Positions 304-52,440 of a DNA stretch of 64,000 nucleotides are shown piece after piece (position 1 is the stretch's first letter; each line of letters opens with the position of its first letter). Source of the DNA: Candidatus Saccharimonadales bacterium (GTDB lineage Bacteria; Patescibacteriota; Saccharimonadia; Saccharimonadales; UBA4665); assembly GCA_035546815.1 (NCBI GenBank), contig DASZWB010000001.1, positions 20,667 to 84,666 of the forward strand. The letters are read 5' to 3'. Both the position numbers and the translations under genes were made by a program. The notes beneath the pieces were generated by a model that saw only the letters and a program-made list of their open reading frames with translations, did no database searches and was not told the DNA's origin.

Positions 304-2565
304 ATGAACCGCGCATGGCAACTCGCACGAAATAAGCTCGGCTGGGAGAGCTGGCAGCTGCTGTACGTGCTGCTGAGCGTTAGCTGGCTGCTGGGGCCGA
401 GCCTGGACCGGCAGCTTTCGCATACCTCGACGTTCATCAGCGAGTTCGAGGATCCGGGGCGGCCGGGCTCGCTGCTGTTTCGGCTGTGCGATATTTCGGC
501 GGCGCTGGTGCTGGCACTGGCGGTTGGGCTGCTGGTTTGGCGGCGGGCGCGGCTGGCGCACTCCACGACTTTTTGGCGGACCAGCGTGGTCTTGCTGGCT
601 ATTGTGGCTCTCGGCTCGCTAATTGATGATTTATTTCCCTCGGCCTGCCAGGCCGGCGCGCACTGCTTGATACCAGGCGGCCTGTCGCGCACGGTTCACA
701 CGGGCGAGTCAATCGGCACCACGCTGGCGCTGATTGGGCTGAACGTGGTGTGGGTCATCAAAAAAATGCCGTGGGCGCGCAGCGTGCTGTTTATTCAGCT
801 GGCCTGGGGGGCGCTCTTTATTTATGGCCAGCTCACCACGGGCAATACGAGCACGCTGGCGCAGTTTGCCTACCAGGTGGCGGTGACGCTGTGGGTGGCC
901 AGCGTGGTGCCGGCGCTGGCCGGCTGGCGGCGGCGCGTTGATCCTCGGCGGCAGCTGCGGCCGCTAATTCATTTGATTGCCGCCTGGGTGTTCGCCGGCG
1001 GCTTTTTGGCGATTGTGACTTCCATCCGCAACCTCGGCGAAATCAGTCATCGCAGCGCCGCTTACTTCGGTGACAACACCGCCTGGCTCAGCCAGCACGG
1101 CGTGGCGGTCGGCATCTTGCTGATGTATGTCAGCCGCCACCTCTGGCGCGGCGAATATCGGGCCTGGCAGCTGGTTTGCCTGCTGCTGTGGCTGGAAACA
1201 CTCAAATACGCCGCCATTACCCCTGATGGCGACCTGGTGCTGCTCTACGGACTAACGGCCTCGCTGCTGTTTGTGCTGCGGCCGCTGTTTGACCGCGTCA
1301 CCTCAGTGGAAGCCTTGCGCGAGCGGCTGAAAAAGCTGGCTTTTGTGGCCGCGGCGTTTGTGCTGGCCCTGATCGTCGGCGTGGTCGCTTTCCGCTACAA
1401 GCACCACCAGGACCTCGACAGCCTCAAGCTCAACTTCGGCCAGCTGAGCCGGCACTTTTTCCTGTTTGATGTCGTGAACGATCTCGGGCCAGTGCGCCGG
1501 CGGCTTCTGGGGCAGGTGCTAAATACCGCCGGCATCGCCCTTTTGCTAGCAATTTTGATTTCGCTGTTCCGGCCGCGCCAGCCGCTGCTCCAGCCGGCCA
1601 ACCAGCAGGGTCGCCAGCAGCTTTTGGAGCGCCTCGGCCGCTACAGCAACTCCACCGAGGATTACTTCAAATACTGGCCGCAGCCAAAGAGTTACTGGTG
1701 GAACGATGACCGCTCGGCGGTTGTGGCTTATCGGACGGTTGGCAACGTGGCCTTCGCGCTGGCTGATCCGGTGGCCGCCGACACCGCGCGCGGCGCGGCT
1801 ATCCAGGATTTCACGGAGTTTTGCCGCCGGCACGGCTGGCGCGCCTGCTTTTTGATGGTTTCCGAGGACAGCCACCGGCTCTATAAATCCGCCGGCTACA
1901 AATTGCTGCGGATCGGCGCCAGCGCCGTGGTCGACATCGAGACTTTCGCCGCCGAAACCGCCCGCAACAAGTGGTGGCGCTGGGTGCTGAACAAAGCCAA
2001 GCGCCAGGCGTGGGAGTATCAGCTGGCCGAGCCGCCGCACAGCCTGCGCCTGATCGCCGAGCTGCACCGCGTCTCAAACGCCTGGTTGCAGCGCCAAAAT
2101 CACCAAGAGCGCGGCTTTGCGCTGGGCTATTTTGACCGAAGTTATTTGCAGCAATGCCGGCTGCACCTGCTGCGGCGGGAGGGCCGCGTCATCGCCTTCG
2201 CCAACGAGCTGCCCGCCTACAACGGCCTGCCCGCCGCCACCATCGACCTGATGCGCTTCCTGCCGGAGTACAATCACGCCATGCCCGCCCTGCTGGCGCA
2301 CACCATTCAGCGGCTGCACCAAGAAGGTGCCAAGCGGCGGTTTGACCTCGGCTTTGTGCCGCTGGCCTCGCCGTCCGGCCGCGGCGAACAGCTTATAAAA
2401 GTGGTCGGCCAGCTGCTGATGAGCGAAGTCGTCTCCGCCCAAGGTCTCGAACAATTCAAGAATAAATTTGGCCCCACCTGGTGTGATAATTACATCGCCT
2501 TCGACGGCGACTGGATCGACCTGCTCCACATCACCCGCCAGCTGGACACACTACTTAAATTATAA
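304..2565 (+). CDS. Polytopic membrane protein with C-terminal aminoacyl-phosphatidylglycerol synthase (MprF/LysX C-terminal, DUF2156-type) domain
   Basis: 753-aa ORF. The N-terminal ~450 aa are hydrophobic and multi-TM. The C-terminal part (YFKYWPQPKSYWWNDDRSAVVAYRTVGNVAFALADPV...) resembles the MprF synthase domain. Confidence 0.6.
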   Translation: MNRAWQLARNKLGWESWQLLYVLLSVSWLLGPSLDRQLSHTSTFISEFEDPGRPGSLLFRLCDISAALVLALAVGLLVWRRARLAHSTTFWRTSVVLLAIVALGSLIDDLFPSACQAGAHCLIPGGLSRTVHTGESIGTTLALIGLNVVWVIKKMPWARSVLFIQLAWGALFIYGQLTTGNTSTLAQFAYQVAVTLWVASVVPALAGWRRRVDPRRQLRPLIHLIAAWVFAGGFLAIVTSIRNLGEISHRSAAYFGDNTAWLSQHGVAVGILLMYVSRHLWRGEYRAWQLVCLLLWLETLKYAAITPDGDLVLLYGLTASLLFVLRPLFDRVTSVEALRERLKKLAFVAAAFVLALIVGVVAFRYKHHQDLDSLKLNFGQLSRHFFLFDVVNDLGPVRRRLLGQVLNTAGIALLLAILISLFRPRQPLLQPANQQGRQQLLERLGRYSNSTEDYFKYWPQPKSYWWNDDRSAVVAYRTVGNVAFALADPVAADTARGAAIQDFTEFCRRHGWRACFLMVSEDSHRLYKSAGYKLLRIGASAVVDIETFAAETARNKWWRWVLNKAKRQAWEYQLAEPPHSLRLIAELHRVSNAWLQRQNHQERGFALGYFDRSYLQQCRLHLLRREGRVIAFANELPAYNGLPAATIDLMRFLPEYNHAMPALLAHTIQRLHQEGAKRRFDLGFVPLASPSGRGEQLIKVVGQLLMSEVVSAQGLEQFKNKFGPTWCDNYIAFDGDWIDLLHITRQLDTLLKL

Positions 2566-2608
2566 GTTCTTCCTCAATCTGACCCGCCGAAAAGCTATCT
2601 TTGGAAAG

Positions 2609-3490
2609 TTACTTGTTTTTCGAGTTCAGCGACGTAAGAATACTCTGGACCTCACCTTGGTGGTCGGCGAGATTAAAGACAGGCGAGGTCATCCCTTGAG
2701 AATTGACAGTGAAATTCTCATTTATTATAACTACGAAAAAAGCCTGGGCCTTTTGGCTGGTGAATACCGCTACGTAGCTCAGTACCGTGTTTGGATCATT
2801 GTCGGCGTTAATTGCACAAACGTTGACATTCGTACCCAGATTGGGCAGATACTCGCTGAACCCCATGGTTAGGCCCGATCCAGCGCAGTTATTATAGGTG
2901 CTTAAGAGTTGTTTGCCGGCGTCGGTGTTGGCCGTCGCCAGCGGATCCGCGTCAATGCGCATAGCTACGTAGGTTTTGCCATCGATAGTAGGTGATATCA
3001 GGCTGGTCTGTGCCGCTGCTGGCGATTGTCCCGGCGGAGTATACGGTGTATATGGGGCAATCTTGGAGCCACGGAAGAACTTAACAGTACAGACGTGGGT
3101 CTTGCAGATAGGATAGTTGTACGTTGTAAGCTTTTGCCTAAAAATAGTAGCCCGCAAATTTTGATTAGTTGCCAAGACCGCCCCTATCGCCGCTAATACT
3201 ATTATCAGCAAAGCTCCTTTTATTAACTTTCTCCAAGGTGGGCGGTGTGTTTTTTGGGACAGATTCGGAGGGCTTGTAATTGAGGTTACCGCCGGTGGAG
3301 GAGTAGCGGGTATCGCAGAAGTCGCAGGTGATGCCCCTGGATCGGGTACAAGATTAGGGTCTGTAGGTTGGATAACTTTCATGCCGCCAGTCGCATTCTC
3401 CGAGGTCGCGCTAATTTGGGGAGTTACAGTAGGCTGGTCAGCTTCTACCGGCTTGTCAGGCGTATCGTTCGGGCTTTGTTCGGGTTGCAT
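2609..3490 (-). CDS. Hypothetical membrane-anchored exported protein (Pro/Thr-rich N-terminus, one TM)
   Basis: 293-aa ORF with a low-complexity P/T/S-rich head, a TM segment (ALLIIVLAAIGAVLA) and a globular C-terminal part. I recognise no family. Confidence 0.45.
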   Translation of the reverse strand: MQPEQSPNDTPDKPVEADQPTVTPQISATSENATGGMKVIQPTDPNLVPDPGASPATSAIPATPPPAVTSITSPPNLSQKTHRPPWRKLIKGALLIIVLAAIGAVLATNQNLRATIFRQKLTTYNYPICKTHVCTVKFFRGSKIAPYTPYTPPGQSPAAAQTSLISPTIDGKTYVAMRIDADPLATANTDAGKQLLSTYNNCAGSGLTMGFSEYLPNLGTNVNVCAINADNDPNTVLSYVAVFTSQKAQAFFVVIINENFTVNSQGMTSPVFNLADHQGEVQSILTSLNSKNK

Positions 3491-44637: not shown

Positions 44638-46827
44638 GTGTTTGCTGCTATCGCTCGGTTTTCGGTTCGTTTTCGGTGGTTGATTATTATTTTTTGGCTG
44701 GCAGCCATTCCGGTGGTGACGGCCAATTTCCCCAGCATCAACAGCGTCACCAAAAACGACAATTCGCAATTTTTGCCCAAAAACAGCCCGACCACTAAGG
44801 CCGGCCAGCTGGAAAACGCTTTTCAGAGCAAGAACACGGCCGGCACGTCGGTGATTGTGGCGGTGCGCGCCGGCGGGCAGCTGACGGCCGCCGACAGCGC
44901 CGCGCTGCAGCAGATTGCCCAGAACGTTAAGCGCGTCAAAGATGTCACGACCGTGCAGGATCAGGGCGTGTCGGCCGACGGCCAGGCCCAGGAGCTGCTG
45001 GTGGGCGTGAACGGCGCCGGCTTTGGCGAGCAGGCCACGCAAATCGTTAGCGATATCCGCGCCCAATTTAAGGATTTGCCGGCTGGTTTGAACGTTTATT
45101 TGACCGGTGATTTGGCGGCCGGCGTCGACGCCGATAACGCCAATCAGAAAGGCCGCAACGACACCGAGGGCCTGACCGTGGTGTTCATTTTGGTCTTGCT
45201 GCTACTGGTGTTCCGGGCCGTGCTGGCGCCGATTACCACGCTGATTCCGGCCGGCATTGCCCTGGCGATTTCGCAGCCGGTGATTGCCGAATCAACCAAA
45301 ATCGGCGTGCAGGTGTCGTTTATTACGCAAATTTTGCTGATTGTGCTGGTGCTGGGTGCCGGCACGGATTACGGGCTTTTCCTGGTGTTCCGCGTGCGCG
45401 AGGAGCTGCGCAATGGTCACGCGCCGAAGGACGCCGTGGTGCGGGCCATGGCGCGCGTTGGCGAGTCGATTACTTTTTCGGCCGCCACGGTGGTGGCCGC
45501 GCTGCTCTGCTTGCTGCTGGCCAGCTTTGGCATTTATAAGGGTCTCGGGCCGGGGCTGGCTATCGCGCTGGGCATTATGCTGCTGATTGCGCTAACGTTT
45601 CTGCCTGCCTTACTGGCGGTGTTGGGCCGGGCGGTTTTTTGGCCGTCCAAGACCCGCAAACGGCCGCTTAAAATCGGGCTGTGGGGGCGCGTGGCGGACC
45701 GCGTGATTAAGCGGCCGGCTTTGATGCTGGGCTTAGGCGTGATCATTTTTGGCGGTTTGTCGTTTGGGATTTTGGGCTACAAGACGACCGGTTTCGGCGA
45801 TCAATCGGCGCCGAACGGCAGCCAATCGGCTACCGGCCAGCAAGTTATCGCGGCGCATTTTCCGGCCGCCAATAACAATCCGGATTTGCTGCTGCTTAAG
45901 TTTGATCAGCCGGTTTGGAATAATTTAGCGGCGGTGCAGAAAGCTCAGAACGAGCTGGCGGCGTCGAGCGTTTTTAAGGCCGTGAGCGGGCCGTTTGACG
46001 CCAACGGCTTCACGCTGACGCCGGCGGCGCTGCAGCAGCTGCACGCCAGCGGCGCCAACACGCCGGCTACGCAGGCCATTTCGCAGTTCATTAGCCCCGA
46101 CGGCCGGACCGTGCAGTTTTATGCGCTCTTCAAGGCCGGACCGAGCGGCAGCCAGGCGGCCACCGACGCCACGCCGGCAGTGCGGGCCGAGCTGGCAAAG
46201 GTCGCCAGCAATGTGGGCGCGGCGGAGAACGGCGTTTACGGCATCGACTCGGTCGGCTACGACGTCAGCCACACCGCCAACGACGACCTGAAACACATCG
46301 TGCCGGTGGTGCTGGTGATCATCGCCATTTTGCTGGCCATCCTGCTGCGCAGCCTGGTGGCGCCGTGGTACCTCATCGCCACCGTCGGCCTGTCGTACTT
46401 GGCCGGTTTAGGTTTCGCCATGATTGTTTTCGTGCATCTCGGGCATCAGGACGGGCTGAACTTTATCCTGCCATTTTTGATGTTCATTTTCAGCATGGCG
46501 CTCGGCGAGGATTACAACATTTTGGTGATGAGCCGCATCCGCGAGGAGGAGCACAACCACGAGCACGACACCACCGAGCAGGCCGTGGCGCGGGCCGTCG
46601 GCGTTACCGGCAGCACCGTGACTTCCGCCGGCCTGATTCTGGCCGGCACGTTCGGCGTGCTGGGGCTGGTGGGCGGCAACGAGCAAATCCAGCAAATCGG
46701 CTTCTCGATCGCCTTCGGCGTGCTGCTGGACACCTTCTTCGTGCGAACCCTGCTGGTGCCGTCAATCGTCACCCTGCTTGGCCGCTACAATTGGTGGCCG
46801 TCACGGCTCTACCACGAATCTAAATAA
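44638..46827 (+). CDS. MMPL-family (RND superfamily) membrane transporter
   Basis: 729 aa with a GTG start after GGAGGG. Two 6-TM bundles are separated by soluble domains, and GTDYGLFLVFRVREEL and GEDYNILVMSRIREE motifs are present. Confidence 0.8.
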   Translation: MFAAIARFSVRFRWLIIIFWLAAIPVVTANFPSINSVTKNDNSQFLPKNSPTTKAGQLENAFQSKNTAGTSVIVAVRAGGQLTAADSAALQQIAQNVKRVKDVTTVQDQGVSADGQAQELLVGVNGAGFGEQATQIVSDIRAQFKDLPAGLNVYLTGDLAAGVDADNANQKGRNDTEGLTVVFILVLLLLVFRAVLAPITTLIPAGIALAISQPVIAESTKIGVQVSFITQILLIVLVLGAGTDYGLFLVFRVREELRNGHAPKDAVVRAMARVGESITFSAATVVAALLCLLLASFGIYKGLGPGLAIALGIMLLIALTFLPALLAVLGRAVFWPSKTRKRPLKIGLWGRVADRVIKRPALMLGLGVIIFGGLSFGILGYKTTGFGDQSAPNGSQSATGQQVIAAHFPAANNNPDLLLLKFDQPVWNNLAAVQKAQNELAASSVFKAVSGPFDANGFTLTPAALQQLHASGANTPATQAISQFISPDGRTVQFYALFKAGPSGSQAATDATPAVRAELAKVASNVGAAENGVYGIDSVGYDVSHTANDDLKHIVPVVLVIIAILLAILLRSLVAPWYLIATVGLSYLAGLGFAMIVFVHLGHQDGLNFILPFLMFIFSMALGEDYNILVMSRIREEEHNHEHDTTEQAVARAVGVTGSTVTSAGLILAGTFGVLGLVGGNEQIQQIGFSIAFGVLLDTFFVRTLLVPSIVTLLGRYNWWPSRLYHESK

Positions 46828-46885
46828 GGCCGAGCGGCCGGCTGCACTCCGCCTGACCCTCATTTTAGGCATGGCCAGGCGCTCG

Positions 46886-47407
46886 CTAAATAGCCAGCAT
46901 TTTGCGCAGGGTTTTGATGTTACGGTTAGTGTTGAAATTTCTGTATTTGGCCTTGGCGAGCGTTTTGCCGAAGGAGCTGCGCAGCGTCAGGCCCTGATCG
47001 ACGCGCCAGTAGATGACGCCGCGGCCGGTTTGGACTTTTTCGCCCCTGCCGAGTTCAAAATCGTCAGCCAAAATGGCCTTTTCTAGCCCGTTTTCGATAA
47101 AGATCACATAGTCATGCTGCTTGCTGCTAGCGGTGCCGAACGGATAGCCGTCAACGATTGCCCGGAGCCGCTCAAGCGGCACGACTTGGACGATGGCCGG
47201 ATAAGCAAAGGTTTTGGTCAGCGCGGCTTCGATCAATTTTTTTAAGTCAGCGGCCGCAGCATCGCTCTCAAAGACGACATTGCCGGATTGCAGCAGCGTA
47301 GCCACATTATGCAAACCGGCCTTGTCCAGACAAACGCGCAAATCGGCCATTTTGACGACCCGCCCGCCCACGTTAATACCGCGCAGAAACGCCGCGTAGC
47401 GCGCCAT
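46886..47407 (-). CDS. DUF1697 domain protein
   Basis: MARYAAFLRGINVGGRVVKMADLRVCL is the DUF1697 signature N-terminus. Confidence 0.75.
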   Translation of the reverse strand: MARYAAFLRGINVGGRVVKMADLRVCLDKAGLHNVATLLQSGNVVFESDAAAADLKKLIEAALTKTFAYPAIVQVVPLERLRAIVDGYPFGTASSKQHDYVIFIENGLEKAILADDFELGRGEKVQTGRGVIYWRVDQGLTLRSSFGKTLAKAKYRNFNTNRNIKTLRKMLAI

Positions 47408-47572
47408 TTATTGCTTCGGCGTTTGCCGGCGCACCACCAGCACGTCGTAGACGAAAATGATGGCCGCCAGCACCAGAGCGATGTAAATCAGCGCTCCCAA
47501 AATGTGCAGGAAGACGCCGATCAGCCAAATCAGCACCAGCACGGCCGCGATAGTTAATAAAATATTTCCCAT
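47408..47572 (-). CDS. lmo0937-family small membrane protein
   Basis: MGNILLTIAAVLVLIWLIGVFLHILGALIYIALVLAAIIFVYDVLV. Start set at the ATG lying 6 nt after a TACAAT box. The track start at 47590 is the alternative. Confidence 0.55.
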   Translation of the reverse strand: MGNILLTIAAVLVLIWLIGVFLHILGALIYIALVLAAIIFVYDVLVVRRQTPKQ

Positions 47573-47605
47573 GCCCTCATTGTAACGCATCTAACGATAA
47601 GAATG

Positions 47606-47620
47606 TGACATGTCAGATTG
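47606..47620. repeat. Terminal inverted repeat, unit 1 left (TGACATGTCAGATTG)
   Basis: Perfect reverse complement of 48343-48357 and identical to 48555-48569. The core TGACATGTCA is itself a 10-nt palindrome. Confidence 0.95.
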
Positions 47621-48342
47621 CGGCGCGGAACTGGTGGCGGGGAGAGCGAAAACCGCTCAGGCTAGGCTCTCCCCGCACCAGTGCTTGTGTTCGTCCTGCT
47701 CTCGGACCTATCGGTATCGGAGCCGTGACACCGTTGATAGGACCGCTGCTATGTTGCGTGAACACCTGGTTAGGTCATACCCCGTGACTACGCTTGTCAG
47801 CACGACCGAGGCGCGTGGCCGTTTGCCAGCACGGCTCCAGATGAACACTCGCCTAACGAACTGCGGCTTTAGCCCGATGGACCACGGGTCATGAAGCGAC
47901 ACAGTTCGGCGTGGGTAGAAGTAGTACAAGCGGGCGGCGCGAGAAGACCTACGAAGGCGGCGGAGAGGAGGACCTCAAAACCACCAGCTTCGGAGCCGGA
48001 AGGTTGCCTTGTAACGCTCCGTCTCGTCTTCTCGCGCTCAGCCCGGGCTAGAGGCGCCGCATCCTCGCGAATTGGCAGGGAGATTCGCGAATCAATTGCA
48101 CACGCCCCCTCACTGGCGCAGCGGACACTGATTCGGGTAATGGCCGCGCGCCAGCAAGTGTGGCAATTGGTGACTACTTGGCTGTCGTCAGCTCCTCCGG
48201 CGGAACTTTATAACGATAACTTCGCTTCCGCTCCTTACGGACGCCCCAGTGCTTGGGACGGCACGGATGACGCAACTTAAATAGACTTCTCATGGCTCTT
48301 CTCCCTTGTGCCCGTTTTGCGCTATTACAAAAAACACAACTA

Positions 48343-48357
48343 CAATCTGACATGTCA
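48343..48357. repeat. Terminal inverted repeat, unit 1 right (CAATCTGACATGTCA)
   Basis: Perfect reverse complement of 47606-47620 and identical to 49278-49292. Confidence 0.95.
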
Positions 48358-48429
48358 AGGTGCTAACCTCGGAAAAACTGCGAACTACCTTGAGCTCAAG
48401 CGGCCTCTCAATCCAAAATTAGTACTATA

Positions 48430-48458
48430 ATTAAACGCTAGCTTAAAGAAAATGTCAA
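48430..48458 (-). promoter_or_regulatory. Promoter P1: TTGACA-N17-TTTAAT reading toward unit 1
   Basis: -35 is the complement of 48453-48458 and -10 the complement of 48430-48435. Boxes and spacer length match the second copy exactly, while the spacer sequence differs. Confidence 0.55.
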
Positions 48459-48554
48459 TGGTGCGGCACTTGCGGCACCTTAGACGAAGTATTATTGAAT
48501 TATTCGAACTGCCAGCGGCATCTCTCAAAGCCAATAATTAATGATTATGGAAAA

Positions 48555-48569
48555 TGACATGTCAGATTG
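48555..48569. repeat. Terminal inverted repeat, unit 2 left (TGACATGTCAGATTG)
   Basis: Perfect reverse complement of 49278-49292. Confidence 0.95.
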
Positions 48570-49128
48570 ATGGGGGCGAAGCGGCTAAAGGTTTGAGAAA
48601 GCGGCGCGGGGAGAGTGAGTCTTCGCGGGGCGAAGTAACCAGATTCCGGACAAATCCAGTCGTGCTACTCACTCTCCCGTTGCCGGCTTTGGTTTACATC
48701 CGCTTTACACGAACCCTGTCTCGGTGGGAGGCGCCAAACGGCACTTGAGACGATAGGCCCGCCGCCTGGGCGATGAAATGCCCGTACGTTACGCGGATAC
48801 CTCCACTCCCGAACACCATCGGGGGCGAAGCCTTTGAAAACTCAAAAAGCAAAATAGAGACCCGAGCGACGAGAAAGCCCCCCAAACTTAGGGACAGGCT
48901 GTGTGTGTATCACTCGCACTGCCCAGTGCGTGCCTGCAACCTTCCGGATTCTTTTGGAACCTTTCCGGTATCGCTTTCTCGCGCTCGGTATCTCTCCCCC
49001 TGTAATGACGCGCACGGCGGACTCTGATGAAGTACCAACTACCTGCATCGGAGCACAACTTGGGCCGTGGGCGCCTTACTGCCTGTTACGACGGTACTTA
49101 TCCCTCCCAGGAGTAACCGTCCAGGCAA

Positions 49129-49160
49129 GTTTTGCGGTTTTGCGGTTTTGCGATTTTGCC
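49129..49160. repeat. Tandem octamer repeat (GTTTTGCG x3 plus ATTTTGCC) inside unit 2
   Basis: Read directly from the sequence: gttttgcg gttttgcg gttttgcg attttgcc. Unit 1 has a single GTTTTGCG at the equivalent end (48313-48320). Confidence 0.9.
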
Positions 49161-49277
49161 TTAGCAAAAAGGACTCAAACTTTTGACATTATCAGAATAC
49201 GAGCAAAGCGGCGGCGCGAGTGGCTGCTCGGCGGCTGCGCTGGTCGTATCCCAATAATATCGCTTGCGCGGTTCAAA

Positions 49278-49292
49278 CAATCTGACATGTCA
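49278..49292. repeat. Terminal inverted repeat, unit 2 right (CAATCTGACATGTCA)
   Basis: Perfect reverse complement of 48555-48569. Confidence 0.95.
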
Positions 49293-49378
49293 AAGTGCTA
49301 ACCTCGGGGAATACACGGCGAATCCAGGCTTTTCGTGCGCGGACTCCAGCCGGTCTCTCGACCCAAAATTGCTATATT

Positions 49379-49407
49379 ATTAAACGCCTCTCGAGAGAAA
49401 ATGTCAA
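49379..49407 (-). promoter_or_regulatory. Promoter P2: TTGACA-N17-TTTAAT reading toward unit 2
   Basis: -35 is the complement of 49402-49407 and -10 the complement of 49379-49384, with a 17-nt spacer. The flanking ACCA and GCG bases are also conserved with P1. Confidence 0.55.
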
Positions 49408-49441
49408 TGGTTCGGCCGCTCGGATGGTAAAATAAAACTCT

Positions 49442-50524
49442 ATGGCACTCTCTATCGGCATCGTCGGGCTGCCCAATGTTGGCAAGTCTACCCTGTTTAA
49501 CGCCCTGACCGGCAGCAATATTTTGGCGGCTAATTATCCGTTTGCGACCATTGAGCCGAATACCGGCATTGTGCCGGTGCCGGACCCGCGGCTGGCTAGG
49601 CTCGGCGAGTTATATAAGACTAATAAAATCGTGCCGGCCACGGTGACGTTTGTGGACATTGCCGGGCTGGTGGCCGGCGCCAGCGAGGGCGAAGGGCTCG
49701 GCAATCAGTTTTTGAGCCATATCCGCAGCACCGACGCCATCGTGCAGGTGGTGCGGGCTTTTGACGATGCCAATGTGACGCATGTTGACGCGGCGCGCGA
49801 ACCATTGCGCGACATCGAGGTCATCAATACCGAGCTAGTGCTTGCCGATTTGCAAACCGTCGCCAAGCGCCTGCCGAAGCTCGAAAAAGAGGCCCGCGCC
49901 GACCCGAAATTGAAGCCGCTGATGGCGACTTACCAGCAGGTGAACACTTTGCTTAATCAGGGCCAGCCGCTCTGGAATCACCCTGAAGTCAACCGCGATC
50001 ACCTTGCCGACTTGCACCTTTTGACCATGAAGCCGGTTATTTACTTGTTCAATCTGGATGAGGCCGGCTTGGGCGATGGTTCAACCCGCGGCGCGCTGCA
50101 GCAACTGGTGGCGCCGGCCCGGGCGCTGTTCGTCTGCGCCAAGTTGGAGAGCGAATTGAAGGATCTGGACGCTGCGGACGCCGCCGAGCTGCTGGCAAGC
50201 TACGGCCAAACCGAATCGGGTCTGGTGCAGCTGATCCATGCCGCTTATGGCACGCTCGGCCTGCAAAGTTTTCTGACGGCCGGCGAAAAAGAGGTCCGCG
50301 CCTGGACGATTCCGGCGGGCGCCACGGCGCCGCAAGCGGCCGGCGTCATTCACGGCGACTTTGAGCGCGGCTTTATTGCCGCCGACGTAGTGAGCTACGA
50401 CGACCTGCTGGCCGCCGGTTCCCTGGCCGCCGCCCGCGCCGCCGGCAAAGTCCGCACCGAAGGCAAAGGCTACATTATGCAGCCCGACGACGTGGTGGAA
50501 TTCAAATTTAATGTTTCTAAATAA
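49442..50524 (+). CDS. ychF: Ribosome-binding ATPase YchF
   Basis: MALSIGIVGLPNVGKSTLFNALT...ANYPFATIEPNTG... plus a C-terminal TGS-like domain. 360 aa. Confidence 0.9.
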   Translation: MALSIGIVGLPNVGKSTLFNALTGSNILAANYPFATIEPNTGIVPVPDPRLARLGELYKTNKIVPATVTFVDIAGLVAGASEGEGLGNQFLSHIRSTDAIVQVVRAFDDANVTHVDAAREPLRDIEVINTELVLADLQTVAKRLPKLEKEARADPKLKPLMATYQQVNTLLNQGQPLWNHPEVNRDHLADLHLLTMKPVIYLFNLDEAGLGDGSTRGALQQLVAPARALFVCAKLESELKDLDAADAAELLASYGQTESGLVQLIHAAYGTLGLQSFLTAGEKEVRAWTIPAGATAPQAAGVIHGDFERGFIAADVVSYDDLLAAGSLAAARAAGKVRTEGKGYIMQPDDVVEFKFNVSK

Positions 50525-51597: not shown

Positions 51598-51751
51598 GGG
51601 GCACCTCCGCCTTTAGCTCTTTCATGATAGTACTTTTTGGCTGAGTAAGCGGTGAAAATCCTCACAAATTGCGTGCGATTTTAATCACACGGATTTGTAA
51701 TGTTTCGAGCTATTTACCCCTGTAATTTCGCGCTCGCACAACATTTAATAT

Positions 51752-51780
51752 TTGACTTCTTATTTTACCCCTATCATAAT
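51752..51780 (+). promoter_or_regulatory. Promoter TTGACT-N17-CATAAT, 6 nt before the Crp/Fnr-family ATG (leaderless configuration)
   Basis: TTGACT at 51752-51757, a 17-nt spacer, CATAAT at 51775-51780, ATG at 51787. Confidence 0.5.
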
Positions 51781-51786
51781 ACATAT

Positions 51787-52440
51787 ATGTTGGCCACGCT
51801 GAAACAGACAGCGGAACTGGTGGACCTCTTCAGGACGCGCGGCCTCAAGCAAACGTTTCGAAAAGGTGATTTTGTAATTCGACCCGGCGATACCCCGCCG
51901 GGCATTTTTTATATCTACCAGGGCTTGGTGAAAGCCTACGACATCACCAAGTACAACGAAGAAAATTTGCTGATTATCCGCAAAGAGGACGAGATTTTTC
52001 CGCTCATTTGGGCCATTACCGGCCAGGAGCGGCACGTGATTTATCAGGCGCTGGCGCCGACCGTCACCTGGCAGTTGAGCCGGCAGGATTTTCTGGACTT
52101 TATCGGCAAAGAGCCCGAGGCACTGGCGCCGATCGTCGACATGACGATTGAAATGTACCGGCTGCACAGCGAGCGCATCCTCAACTTGGAGTACCGCACG
52201 GTGCGCGAACGCATCATTTCGTTTTTGCTGACCATGGGCCAGCGCTTTGGCAAACAGACGGCCGACGGGCTGCTGATTGACGTGCCGCTGCGGCACCAGG
52301 ATATCGCCAGCTCAGTGAACGCCACCCGCGAAACCACCAGCCGCGAGCTGTCGGCGCTGGAACGCAAGGGTTTACTCAAAAATAAGCAGTCGCTGATCGT
52401 GCTCTACGACGTCAAAGCTCTGCGCAAACACCTCGGCTGA
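51787..52440 (+). CDS. Crp/Fnr-family transcriptional regulator
   Basis: cNMP-binding-like beta-roll (FRKGDFVIRPGDTPPGIFYIYQGLVKAY) and a C-terminal HTH (RHQDIASSVNATRETTSRELSALERKG). Start set at MLATLKQ. Confidence 0.75.
   Translation: MLATLKQTAELVDLFRTRGLKQTFRKGDFVIRPGDTPPGIFYIYQGLVKAYDITKYNEENLLIIRKEDEIFPLIWAITGQERHVIYQALAPTVTWQLSRQDFLDFIGKEPEALAPIVDMTIEMYRLHSERILNLEYRTVRERIISFLLTMGQRFGKQTADGLLIDVPLRHQDIASSVNATRETTSRELSALERKGLLKNKQSLIVLYDVKALRKHLG

Follow-up and report, generated by a model that had tools for sequence, protein, structure and literature searches.

A 64,000-nt stretch of a Candidatus Saccharimonadales bacterium genome (assembly GCA_035546815.1, contig DASZWB010000001.1, positions 20,667 to 84,666 of the forward strand; the whole stretch is referred to below as the window, and positions are given in its numbering) contains two neighbouring units, U1 and U2, each with a long-range helix. 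Results of our analysis indicate that this helix is the closing stem of an internal multi-branched junction domain in a non-coding transcript of about 0.8 kb, and not an isolated feature. The reading in which the helix closes such a domain in an RNA of the minus strand, and in which the two units are tandem, paralogous and self-contained RNA genes, has in our estimate a probability of roughly three in four. The units represent a family of large structured non-coding RNAs that is new, specific to its lineage, and matched by no described RNA family. The helix, one well-supported stem of these molecules, is the most conserved internal element of the family.

The helix and the strand from which it is read

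Both helices form as an earlier note on this DNA had proposed. In U1, GCGCGAGAAGAC (47937-47948) pairs with GTCTTCTCGCGC (48026-48037) over 12 perfect base pairs that enclose 77 nt, and beyond a G/TCA internal loop the stem is extended by the pairing of CGGGC (47931-35) with GCCCG (48041-45). In U2, CCGAGCG-A-CGAGAAAGC (48862-78) pairs with GCTTTCTCGCGCTCGG (48973-88) in 7+9 base pairs with one bulged A, enclosing 94 nt. The strands that come second in the window sense lie at the same offset, as claimed, starting 420 nt (U1) and 418 nt (U2) past the left arms of the inverted repeats bounding the units (at 47606 and 48555, respectively), and the two adjacent double substitutions that distinguish U1 from U2, G-C to A-T and A-T to G-C, are real. 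Only the labelling of the strands as 5' and 3' has to be reversed, as the RNA sense is that of the minus strand; in this sense CCGAGCG-CGAGAAAGC is paired with GCUUUCUCG-(U)-CGCUCGG. A perfect stem of at least 12 bp with a loop of at most 150 nt appeared in 1 of 200 dinucleotide shuffles of U1.

The proposal of a conserved folded nucleic-acid structure had been based on the covariation between two sequences. It is now supported by seven further homologous units (homologous loci and contigs are designated below by L-numbers) with many compensatory changes, so that the helix is kept, and covaries, in nine units. The nine-unit excerpt of the helix was registered by hand, because MAFFT alignment of the linker-joined strands mis-registered the bulges; bulged bases were taken out and the strands were joined by an artificial linker. 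In this excerpt 91.3% of cells are paired, and double-sided changes occur in 10 of the 17 pairs vs. 3.2±1.5 after shuffling (reached in 0 of 500 shuffles) and 1-4 in slid registers. Pairs are maintained by compensatory substitutions across homologues, as is expected of a structured RNA. The excerpt includes 10-11 G·U cells and three A·C cells, all of the latter at the frayed outer end. A diverged form of the helix is present in L025b, beyond the nine units.

What the helix encloses depends on the subtype of the RNA. In the U2-type RNAs it encloses a three- to four-way junction with a conserved GGUUCC-AAAAG-GAAYCC hairpin and a branched CAGGC stem. In the U1-type RNAs the helix itself is near-identical in U1 and L021a, and the enclosed sequence is wholly different yet folds. 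The junction domains of four U2-type units (U2, L010, L021b, and L023) served to build a covariance model, R1, which scores 115-146 bits in these seed units, where a match is given by construction; beyond them it matches L022 weakly (E 1.4e-3) and L021a weakly and misses U1. The interior of the junction domain is not conserved across subtypes, and only its closing helix is.

The strand that gives rise to the RNA is most likely the minus strand of the window. The predicted promoter and every open reading frame (ORF) carried by homologous cassettes are located on this strand. For nine of ten units the minus-sense fold is the more stable one, by up to 60 kcal/mol, and the consensus alifold energy of four U2-type RNAs likewise favours this sense (-193.7 kcal/mol vs. 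-138.9 kcal/mol in the plus sense). The helices of L023, L021b, L025b, and L010 contain G·U pairs when read in the minus sense; on the other strand these would turn into A·C mismatches, which identifies the molecule as RNA. The helix of L023 has three G·U pairs in the minus sense vs. three A·C mismatches in the plus sense (duplex energies of -29.3 vs. -19.7 kcal/mol), and for L025b the corresponding energies are -29.8 and -18.1 kcal/mol. The hairpin of the leader also needs U·G pairs, which are formed only in the minus sense.

The covariation extends over the whole RNA. An alignment (A2) of U2, L010, L021b, and L023, from the leader to the 3' arm (899 columns), yields an RNAalifold structure of 215 pairs in 25 helices. 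In this structure 92% of cells are paired, a percentage inflated by the prediction of the structure from the same sequences, and 41 pairs show double changes, a count inflated less, vs. 18.3±3.1 in shuffles (0 of 500) and 6-14 in slid registers. For the two window units the folding z-scores are -7.1 and -8.6 in the minus sense; the corresponding plus-sense values are -4.8 and -7.1.

No evidence of protein coding was found in the units. A tblastn search with all proteins encoded by homologous cassettes against the units gave a best E of 0.03 and no similarity, and tblastx between orthologous units produced matches in all frames and on both strands. Substitutions show no three-base periodicity (p 0.35-0.93), the longest stop-free stretches of the units lie in different frames and on different strands, and the ATG of the longest minus-strand ORF in U2 is not conserved in the orthologues. 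The units have no conserved reading frame, as is typical of structured non-coding RNA. Given that their ORFs are Arg-rich and unconserved, with no tblastn similarity and no periodicity, we rejected a protein-coding function.

A search with the 4227 families of Rfam 15 revealed no match at E<=1 in the region 46500-50500, tRNAs only in the whole window, and no credible match in seven homologous loci. Membership in any Rfam 15 family, including OLE, GOLLD, ROOL, group I/II introns, RNase P, 6S RNA, and riboswitches, was rejected, as no covariance-model match came close to the gathering score. A search of the literature on non-coding RNAs of Saccharibacteria and Patescibacteria, and on the core sequence of the arms (TGACATGTCA), revealed no relevant description.

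Organization of the units and their relation to surface-protein cassettes

U1 and U2 are arranged in tandem in a 1.85-kb gap (47591-49441) that has no credible ORF and separates ychF from the DUF5670/DUF1697 genes. In the RNA sense each unit begins with a promoter and a 5' leader hairpin. A 15-nt arm comes next, then highly structured, ORF-less RNA of about 0.7 kb, and, after a purine-rich GC hairpin, the complementary arm. The coordinates of these features are collected in the table.

Features of the U1 and U2 units and of the flanking genes (window coordinates; promoters, transcripts and RNA structures are predicted)
Feature	Position	Strand	Details
DUF5670 gene	47408-47590	minus	small; one flank of the gap; ATG at 47590
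U1, arm to arm	47606-48357		within the gap
U1 RNA gene	47606..48423	minus	from predicted start at ~48423 to the 3' arm; no U-run past the arm
U1 3' arm	47606..47620	minus	
U1 3' GC hairpin	47630..47682	minus	GGGGAGAGC...GCUCUCCCC
U1 helix, 3' strand in RNA sense	47931..47948	minus	
U1 junction domain	47949..48025	minus	within the helix; two to three hairpins; not alignable with L021a, stems in both
U1 helix, 5' strand in RNA sense	48026..48045	minus	in minimum free energy folds; conserved in L021a
U1 5' arm	48343..48357	minus	
U1 leader hairpin, at 5' end	48363..48422	minus	alignment columns 25-84
U1 promoter	48430..48458	minus	-35 at 48453-48458, -10 at 48430-48435
U2, arm to arm	48555-49292		within the gap
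U2 RNA gene	48551..49372	minus	from predicted start at ~49372 to the U-run past the 3' arm; from promoter position, fold and U-run; ends inferred
U2 3' arm	48555..48569	minus	CAAUCUGACAUGUCA, then UUUU at 48551-48554
U2 purine-rich 3' GC hairpin	48602..48685	minus	GGGAGAGUGAGU...ACUCACUCUCCCC
U2 helix, 3' strand in RNA sense	48862..48878	minus	one bulged U
U2 junction domain	48879..48972	minus	GGUUCC-AAAAG-GAAUCC hairpin, branched CAGGC stem, CCCUAAGUUUGGGG hairpin; A2 helices 13-16
U2 helix, 5' strand in RNA sense	48973..48988	minus	helix 12 of alignment A2
U2 long 5' hairpin	49185..49261	minus	GAUAUUAUUGGGAUACGACCAG...GCUCGUAUUCUGAUAAUGUC; A2 helix 6, 96% paired, 4 double changes
U2 5' arm	49278..49292	minus	UGACAUGUCAGAUUG
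U2 leader hairpin	49297..49372	minus	AAUUUUGGG...CCCCGAGGUU; A2 helices 1-3
U2 promoter	49379..49407	minus	-35 TTGACA at 49402-49407, 17-nt spacer, -10 TTTAAT at 49379-49384
ychF	49442-50524	plus	other flank of the gap

The predicted promoter is sigma-70-like, and all ten ORF-less units have its TTGACA-17-TTTAAT sequence unchanged on the minus strand. Directly past the predicted start lies the leader hairpin (AAUUUUGGG...CCCYGAGGUU, with U·G pairs), followed by the first arm; in A2 its helices 1-2 (the AAUUUUGGG/CCCCGAGGUU stem) are 100% paired and the 3-pair apical helix 3 is 75% paired. The long 5' hairpin of U2 is homologous to the 5'-untranslated region (UTR) hairpin of ORF-bearing cassettes. 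The 3' GC hairpins of U1, U2, and nearly all other cassettes have a purine-rich side (GGGGAGAG, GGAGG) and a CCUCC-like side, and resemble a Shine-Dalgarno/anti-Shine-Dalgarno duplex. About four copies of an 8-nt tandem repeat, GTTTTGCG (CGCAAAAC in the RNA sense), are present in U2 at 49129-49159 and are absent from the orthologous units. From the promoter, fold, and sequence past the 3' arm we infer transcription, its start and end points, and the pairing of the arms in vivo.

The arms form a perfect 15-nt inverted repeat around each unit (TGACATGTCAGATTG/CAATCTGACATGTCA), of which the window holds only four arm copies. They pair with each other and close the molecule in every minimum free energy and centroid fold. 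Directly past the 3' arm in the RNA sense, U2, L021b, L022, L025b, and L002 have a run of UUUU(U/C), and U1, L021a, L023, and L010 have CUUAUC, leading into the DUF5670 gene with no U-run. The arm duplex followed by the U-run suggests the stem of a long-range intrinsic terminator; as this stem encloses about 700 nt, it is invisible to standard terminator scans. The transcript of U1 may continue into the DUF5670 gene.

The core of the arm, TGACATGTCA, is a perfect palindrome. The non-palindromic extension of the arms covaries between the two arms (GATTG/CAATC, GACTG/CAGTC, and GATTA/TGATC), which would be expected both under RNA pairing and under recognition of the arms by a shared protein. In low-GC cassettes (L004, reverse complement at ~2227, L016, L018, L020, and L003), a related perfect palindrome, TAACATGTTA, is located between the -35 and -10 boxes and overlaps the -10 box. 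The arm pattern taken together with TAACATGTTA suggests a dimeric protein that would read either the DNA or the symmetric arm duplex and recognise T[GA]ACATGT[CT]A. The candidate roles of the arms are thus either that of an RNA clamp or terminator or that of a protein-binding site. The TTGACA within the arm was considered as a -35 box and rejected, as no consistent -10 box is present 17 nt downstream.

A conserved tail of about 125 nt adjoins each unit. The interiors of U1 and U2 are not alignable with each other, and only the arms, the tail, and the TTCTCGCGCTC block can be aligned. A scan of a genome collection for the arm-plus-tail motif led to one Saccharibacteria metagenome-assembled genome (L002) with one unit in the same syntenic position, and a scan of metagenomes led to 18 further loci; a scan of viral contigs for the arm/tail motif gave 0 matches. 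Contigs with close YchF homologues contain further units in the gap between DUF1697/DUF5670 and ychF: two in L021, one in L022, one in L023, two in L025, and one partial unit in L032. The YchF protein of the window itself is 100% identical to one encoded by a Candidatus Saccharimonadales metagenome-assembled genome. Several other ychF-bearing relatives that were examined have no unit at the homologous position. In total, ten complete ORF-less units of 538-752 nt and one partial unit were found, all upstream of DUF1697 on the same strand. They are kept in at least eight genomes of a lineage with very small genomes, and the arms are near-invariant across lineages whose YchF proteins are only ~65% identical.

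At most of the metagenome loci a real gene is located between the two arms, on the strand opposite to the window plus strand, starting ~160-190 nt past the tail-side arm. Because these genes run on that strand from the tail side, the tail can be recognised as a minus-strand promoter plus leader. The genes encode secreted proteins, 236 to 674 aa long, with signal peptides and with He_PIG, Big_9, or cadherin-like domains, or with Pro/Thr-rich regions and C-terminal anchors; one cassette also carries a sortase. Promoters at the equivalent place in two other groups of cassettes are TTGACA-17-TAGAAT/TAAAAT and TTTACT-17-TAGATT. The ORF-bearing and the ORF-less cassettes have in common the promoter, the leader, the arms, and the 3' hairpin, as well as a long hairpin past the first arm (GGGAUACG...). 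The 3' module, a purine-rich GC hairpin (GGGGAG.G.GAG/CUC.C.CUCCCC) before the second arm, is found in nearly all cassettes of both kinds. The ORF-less units have the appearance of a surface-protein expression cassette in non-coding form.

Among close relatives (L017, L014, L024, and L026-L033) the site upstream of ychF differs in its occupants, which are ORF-less units, a surface-protein cassette (of 332 aa in L017 and >588 aa in L014), or ordinary genes with no cassette motif; it behaves like a hot spot of cargo replacement. All syntenic loci have, in second place downstream of ychF (51700-52440 in the window), the gene of a Crp/Fnr-type regulator (cNMP_binding and HTH_Crp_2), one of the few candidate DNA-binding proteins encoded near the units. 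In L010 an imperfect palindrome of ~107 nt (74% self-complementary; L010u 811-917) lies between the promoter region of the unit and ychF. In L003 the 3' arm of one cassette is directly adjoined by an IS110-like transposase ORF (2128-3078; MNVVGFDVAKDSL..., assigned by its N-terminal motif); L008, a sister contig, has the same cassette and no IS110-like ORF.

Possible role of the RNAs and alternative explanations

The two tandem minus-strand genes would extend from ~49372 to 48551 (U2) and from ~48423 to 47606 (U1), the latter possibly on into DUF5670. Protection of the transcript is the probable role of its 5'-terminal hairpin, as judged from analogous 5' stabiliser hairpins. The arms would clamp the RNA ends together, as they do in silico, and in U2 the arm duplex with the U-run would terminate transcription. 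The helix, by closing the central junction domain, would organise the body of the RNA. As a working model, which we hold only tentatively, the RNA derives from a surface-protein mRNA cassette, is stable and non-coding, and acts through the leader, arm, and 3'-hairpin modules that it shares with such mRNAs; this model is preferred because the flanking modules are common to surface-protein mRNAs. The RNA might, for instance, compete for a factor that handles these mRNAs, with the helix-closed junction domain supplying the folded body. A more specific proposal, possible and in our view somewhat doubtful, is that the units form a hitherto undescribed class of ornate non-coding RNAs of large size (0.55-0.8 kb), restricted to Saccharimonadales, which was exapted from a surface-protein cassette and acts in trans on the expression or processing of mRNAs with the same modules. 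In such an exaptation the promoter, the 5' stabiliser hairpin, the 15-nt end-clamping arms, and the 3' hairpin would have been retained, and the ORF would have been swapped for a folded RNA body.

Several observations weigh against self-contained minus-strand RNA genes. The -10 box TTTAAT has no canonical A at position 2, because of which a generic promoter scan missed it. The covariation over the full length comes from four sequences, with the structure predicted from the same four, and the nine-sequence alignment of the helix was registered by hand with its bulges removed. The near-invariance of the arms and their palindromic core are not explained by RNA pairing alone. With respect to the strand, the plus sense gives the better fold of L021a and, for the isolated helix of U1, L021a, and L022, a slightly greater stability. 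Arm mismatches of L025a, L025b, and L003 are G·T in the plus sense; in the arms of L025a and L025b, the plus-sense T·G is a C·A mismatch in the RNA sense. The location of every ORF-less unit upstream of DUF1697, on the same strand, is compatible with a cis-regulatory role.

The last point leads to the main alternative, in which the units are giant cis-acting 5' leaders on the minus strand that control DUF5670/DUF1697, the helix being part of a regulatory fold. The DUF5670 start within ~25 nt past the 3' arm in U1, L021a, L010, and L023, all with CUUAUC instead of a U-run, agrees with it. However, in U2 and L021b the U-run is followed by another complete promoter, a U-run also precedes DUF1697 in L002, L022, and L025b, the Rfam search matched no riboswitch or leader family, and elsewhere the same frame holds complete surface-protein genes and ends beside convergent genes, so that we consider control in cis unlikely. 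It is less probable still that the units are decaying remnants of surface-protein cassettes, i.e., pseudogenes with surviving UTR modules and a functionless central structure. The 5' and 3' modules common to ORF-bearing cassettes, the variable occupation of the locus, and the 332-aa ORF at the same site of the close relative L017 (YchF 96% identical over 47 aa) would fit such decay, but the units have no residual similarity to any cargo protein, their folding z-scores are strongly negative, their central helices are kept by compensatory changes across genomes whose YchF proteins are only 82-87% identical, and they persist in at least eight very small genomes.

The 15-bp inverted repeats, which are perfect, have a palindromic core, and do not vary across lineages, could also belong to DNA-level elements, either transposons similar to miniature inverted-repeat transposable elements (MITEs) or invertible phase-variation segments, in which the helix would be incidental. 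Surface proteins are a classic target of phase variation, the palindrome TAACATGTTA over the -10 box of low-GC cassettes suggests a DNA-binding protein, and an IS110-like gene abuts one arm in L003. Of the hallmarks of MITEs, terminal inverted repeats are present; target-site duplications (the flanks of the arms differ) and multiple near-identical copies (the interiors of U1 and U2 are unalignable) are not. The location is syntenic and the units diverge along with the host genes; the promoter is placed outside the repeats. About 25 cassettes examined all have the same orientation relative to the promoter, whereas an inverton would be expected in both, and no transposase or recombinase is encoded near the window units. 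The lack of target-site duplication, dissimilar copies, synteny, single orientation, and lack of a nearby recombinase make a transposon or an inverton very improbable, and such an element would leave the G·U-tolerant covariation of the internal helix unexplained. The explanation to which we give the least credence is a structure formed by the plus strand, e.g., a long ychF leader. The units are directly upstream of ychF on its strand, and the better plus-sense fold of L021a and the G·T pairs in the arms mentioned above would speak for it; it is contradicted by the A·C mismatches in the helices of L023, L021b, L025b, and L010, by the preference of nine of the ten units and of the consensus fold for the minus sense, and by the conserved promoter and all ORF cargos on the minus strand. 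Moreover, some cassettes are located far away from ychF, and in many close relatives ychF is present and the unit absent. Two further candidates were rejected: integron-like cassettes, as each unit has its own promoter and no attC-like site, and silent donor cassettes for antigenic variation, as the units have promoters and share no sequence with cargo ORFs.

Comparison with known systems

The terminal inverted repeats are reminiscent of MITEs such as the Correia elements of Neisseria, which are also transcribed and whose repeats can pair in RNA. The units described here are five to ten times longer, their copies are unlike each other, they are syntenic with no target-site duplication, and their interior is conserved by structure and not by sequence. 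The enclosure of a large structured RNA by a long-range duplex of 5' and 3' sequences is also a feature of the processing stems of rRNA operons, which are substrates of RNase III. Unlike these, the predicted arm duplex has only 15 bp, is near-invariant with a palindromic core, and also flanks mRNAs, and the U-run past the duplex in several units suggests termination rather than processing.

The leader hairpin, a stem within a few nt of the predicted start and ahead of surface-protein genes, resembles the 5' stabiliser hairpins known from the ompA 5' UTR and from highly expressed envelope and S-layer mRNAs. In contrast to these mRNAs, the window cassettes carry no ORF. Decoy or sponge RNAs such as CsrB/RsmZ and 6S RNA offer a parallel only as to a possible mode of action, that of a non-coding RNA with the recognition modules of a set of mRNAs, and not as to membership. 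The present units have no repeated GGA-type motifs.

In general form the units resemble OLE, GOLLD, and ROOL, large ornate RNAs whose function is unknown or has been studied only recently, which are longer than 500 nt, intergenic, restricted to one lineage, and transcribed from their own promoter, with nested helices closed by a terminal stem, and which were recognised by covariation before their function. Few bacterial non-coding RNAs exceed 500 nt, and unexpected biology has followed from each of these new classes. The present RNAs differ in having no covariance-model similarity in Rfam 15, in their occurrence in Saccharimonadales (Patescibacteria), and in the presence of two tandem paralogues. 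In Saccharibacteria, which are ultra-small and epibiotic, genomes measure ~1 Mb and very few regulatory RNAs are known, because of which the use of 1.8 kb for two structured non-coding genes is worthy of attention. A further difference, and the most interesting aspect of this RNA family, is its relation to surface-protein cassettes: its members and protein-coding cassettes have the promoter, leader, arms, and 3' hairpin in common, which to our knowledge has not been reported for OLE, GOLLD, or ROOL. The encoded surface proteins likely mediate host attachment, and the modules common to the RNAs and to the genes of these secreted, adhesin-like proteins provide a testable handle on the expression, and perhaps the regulation, of the latter.

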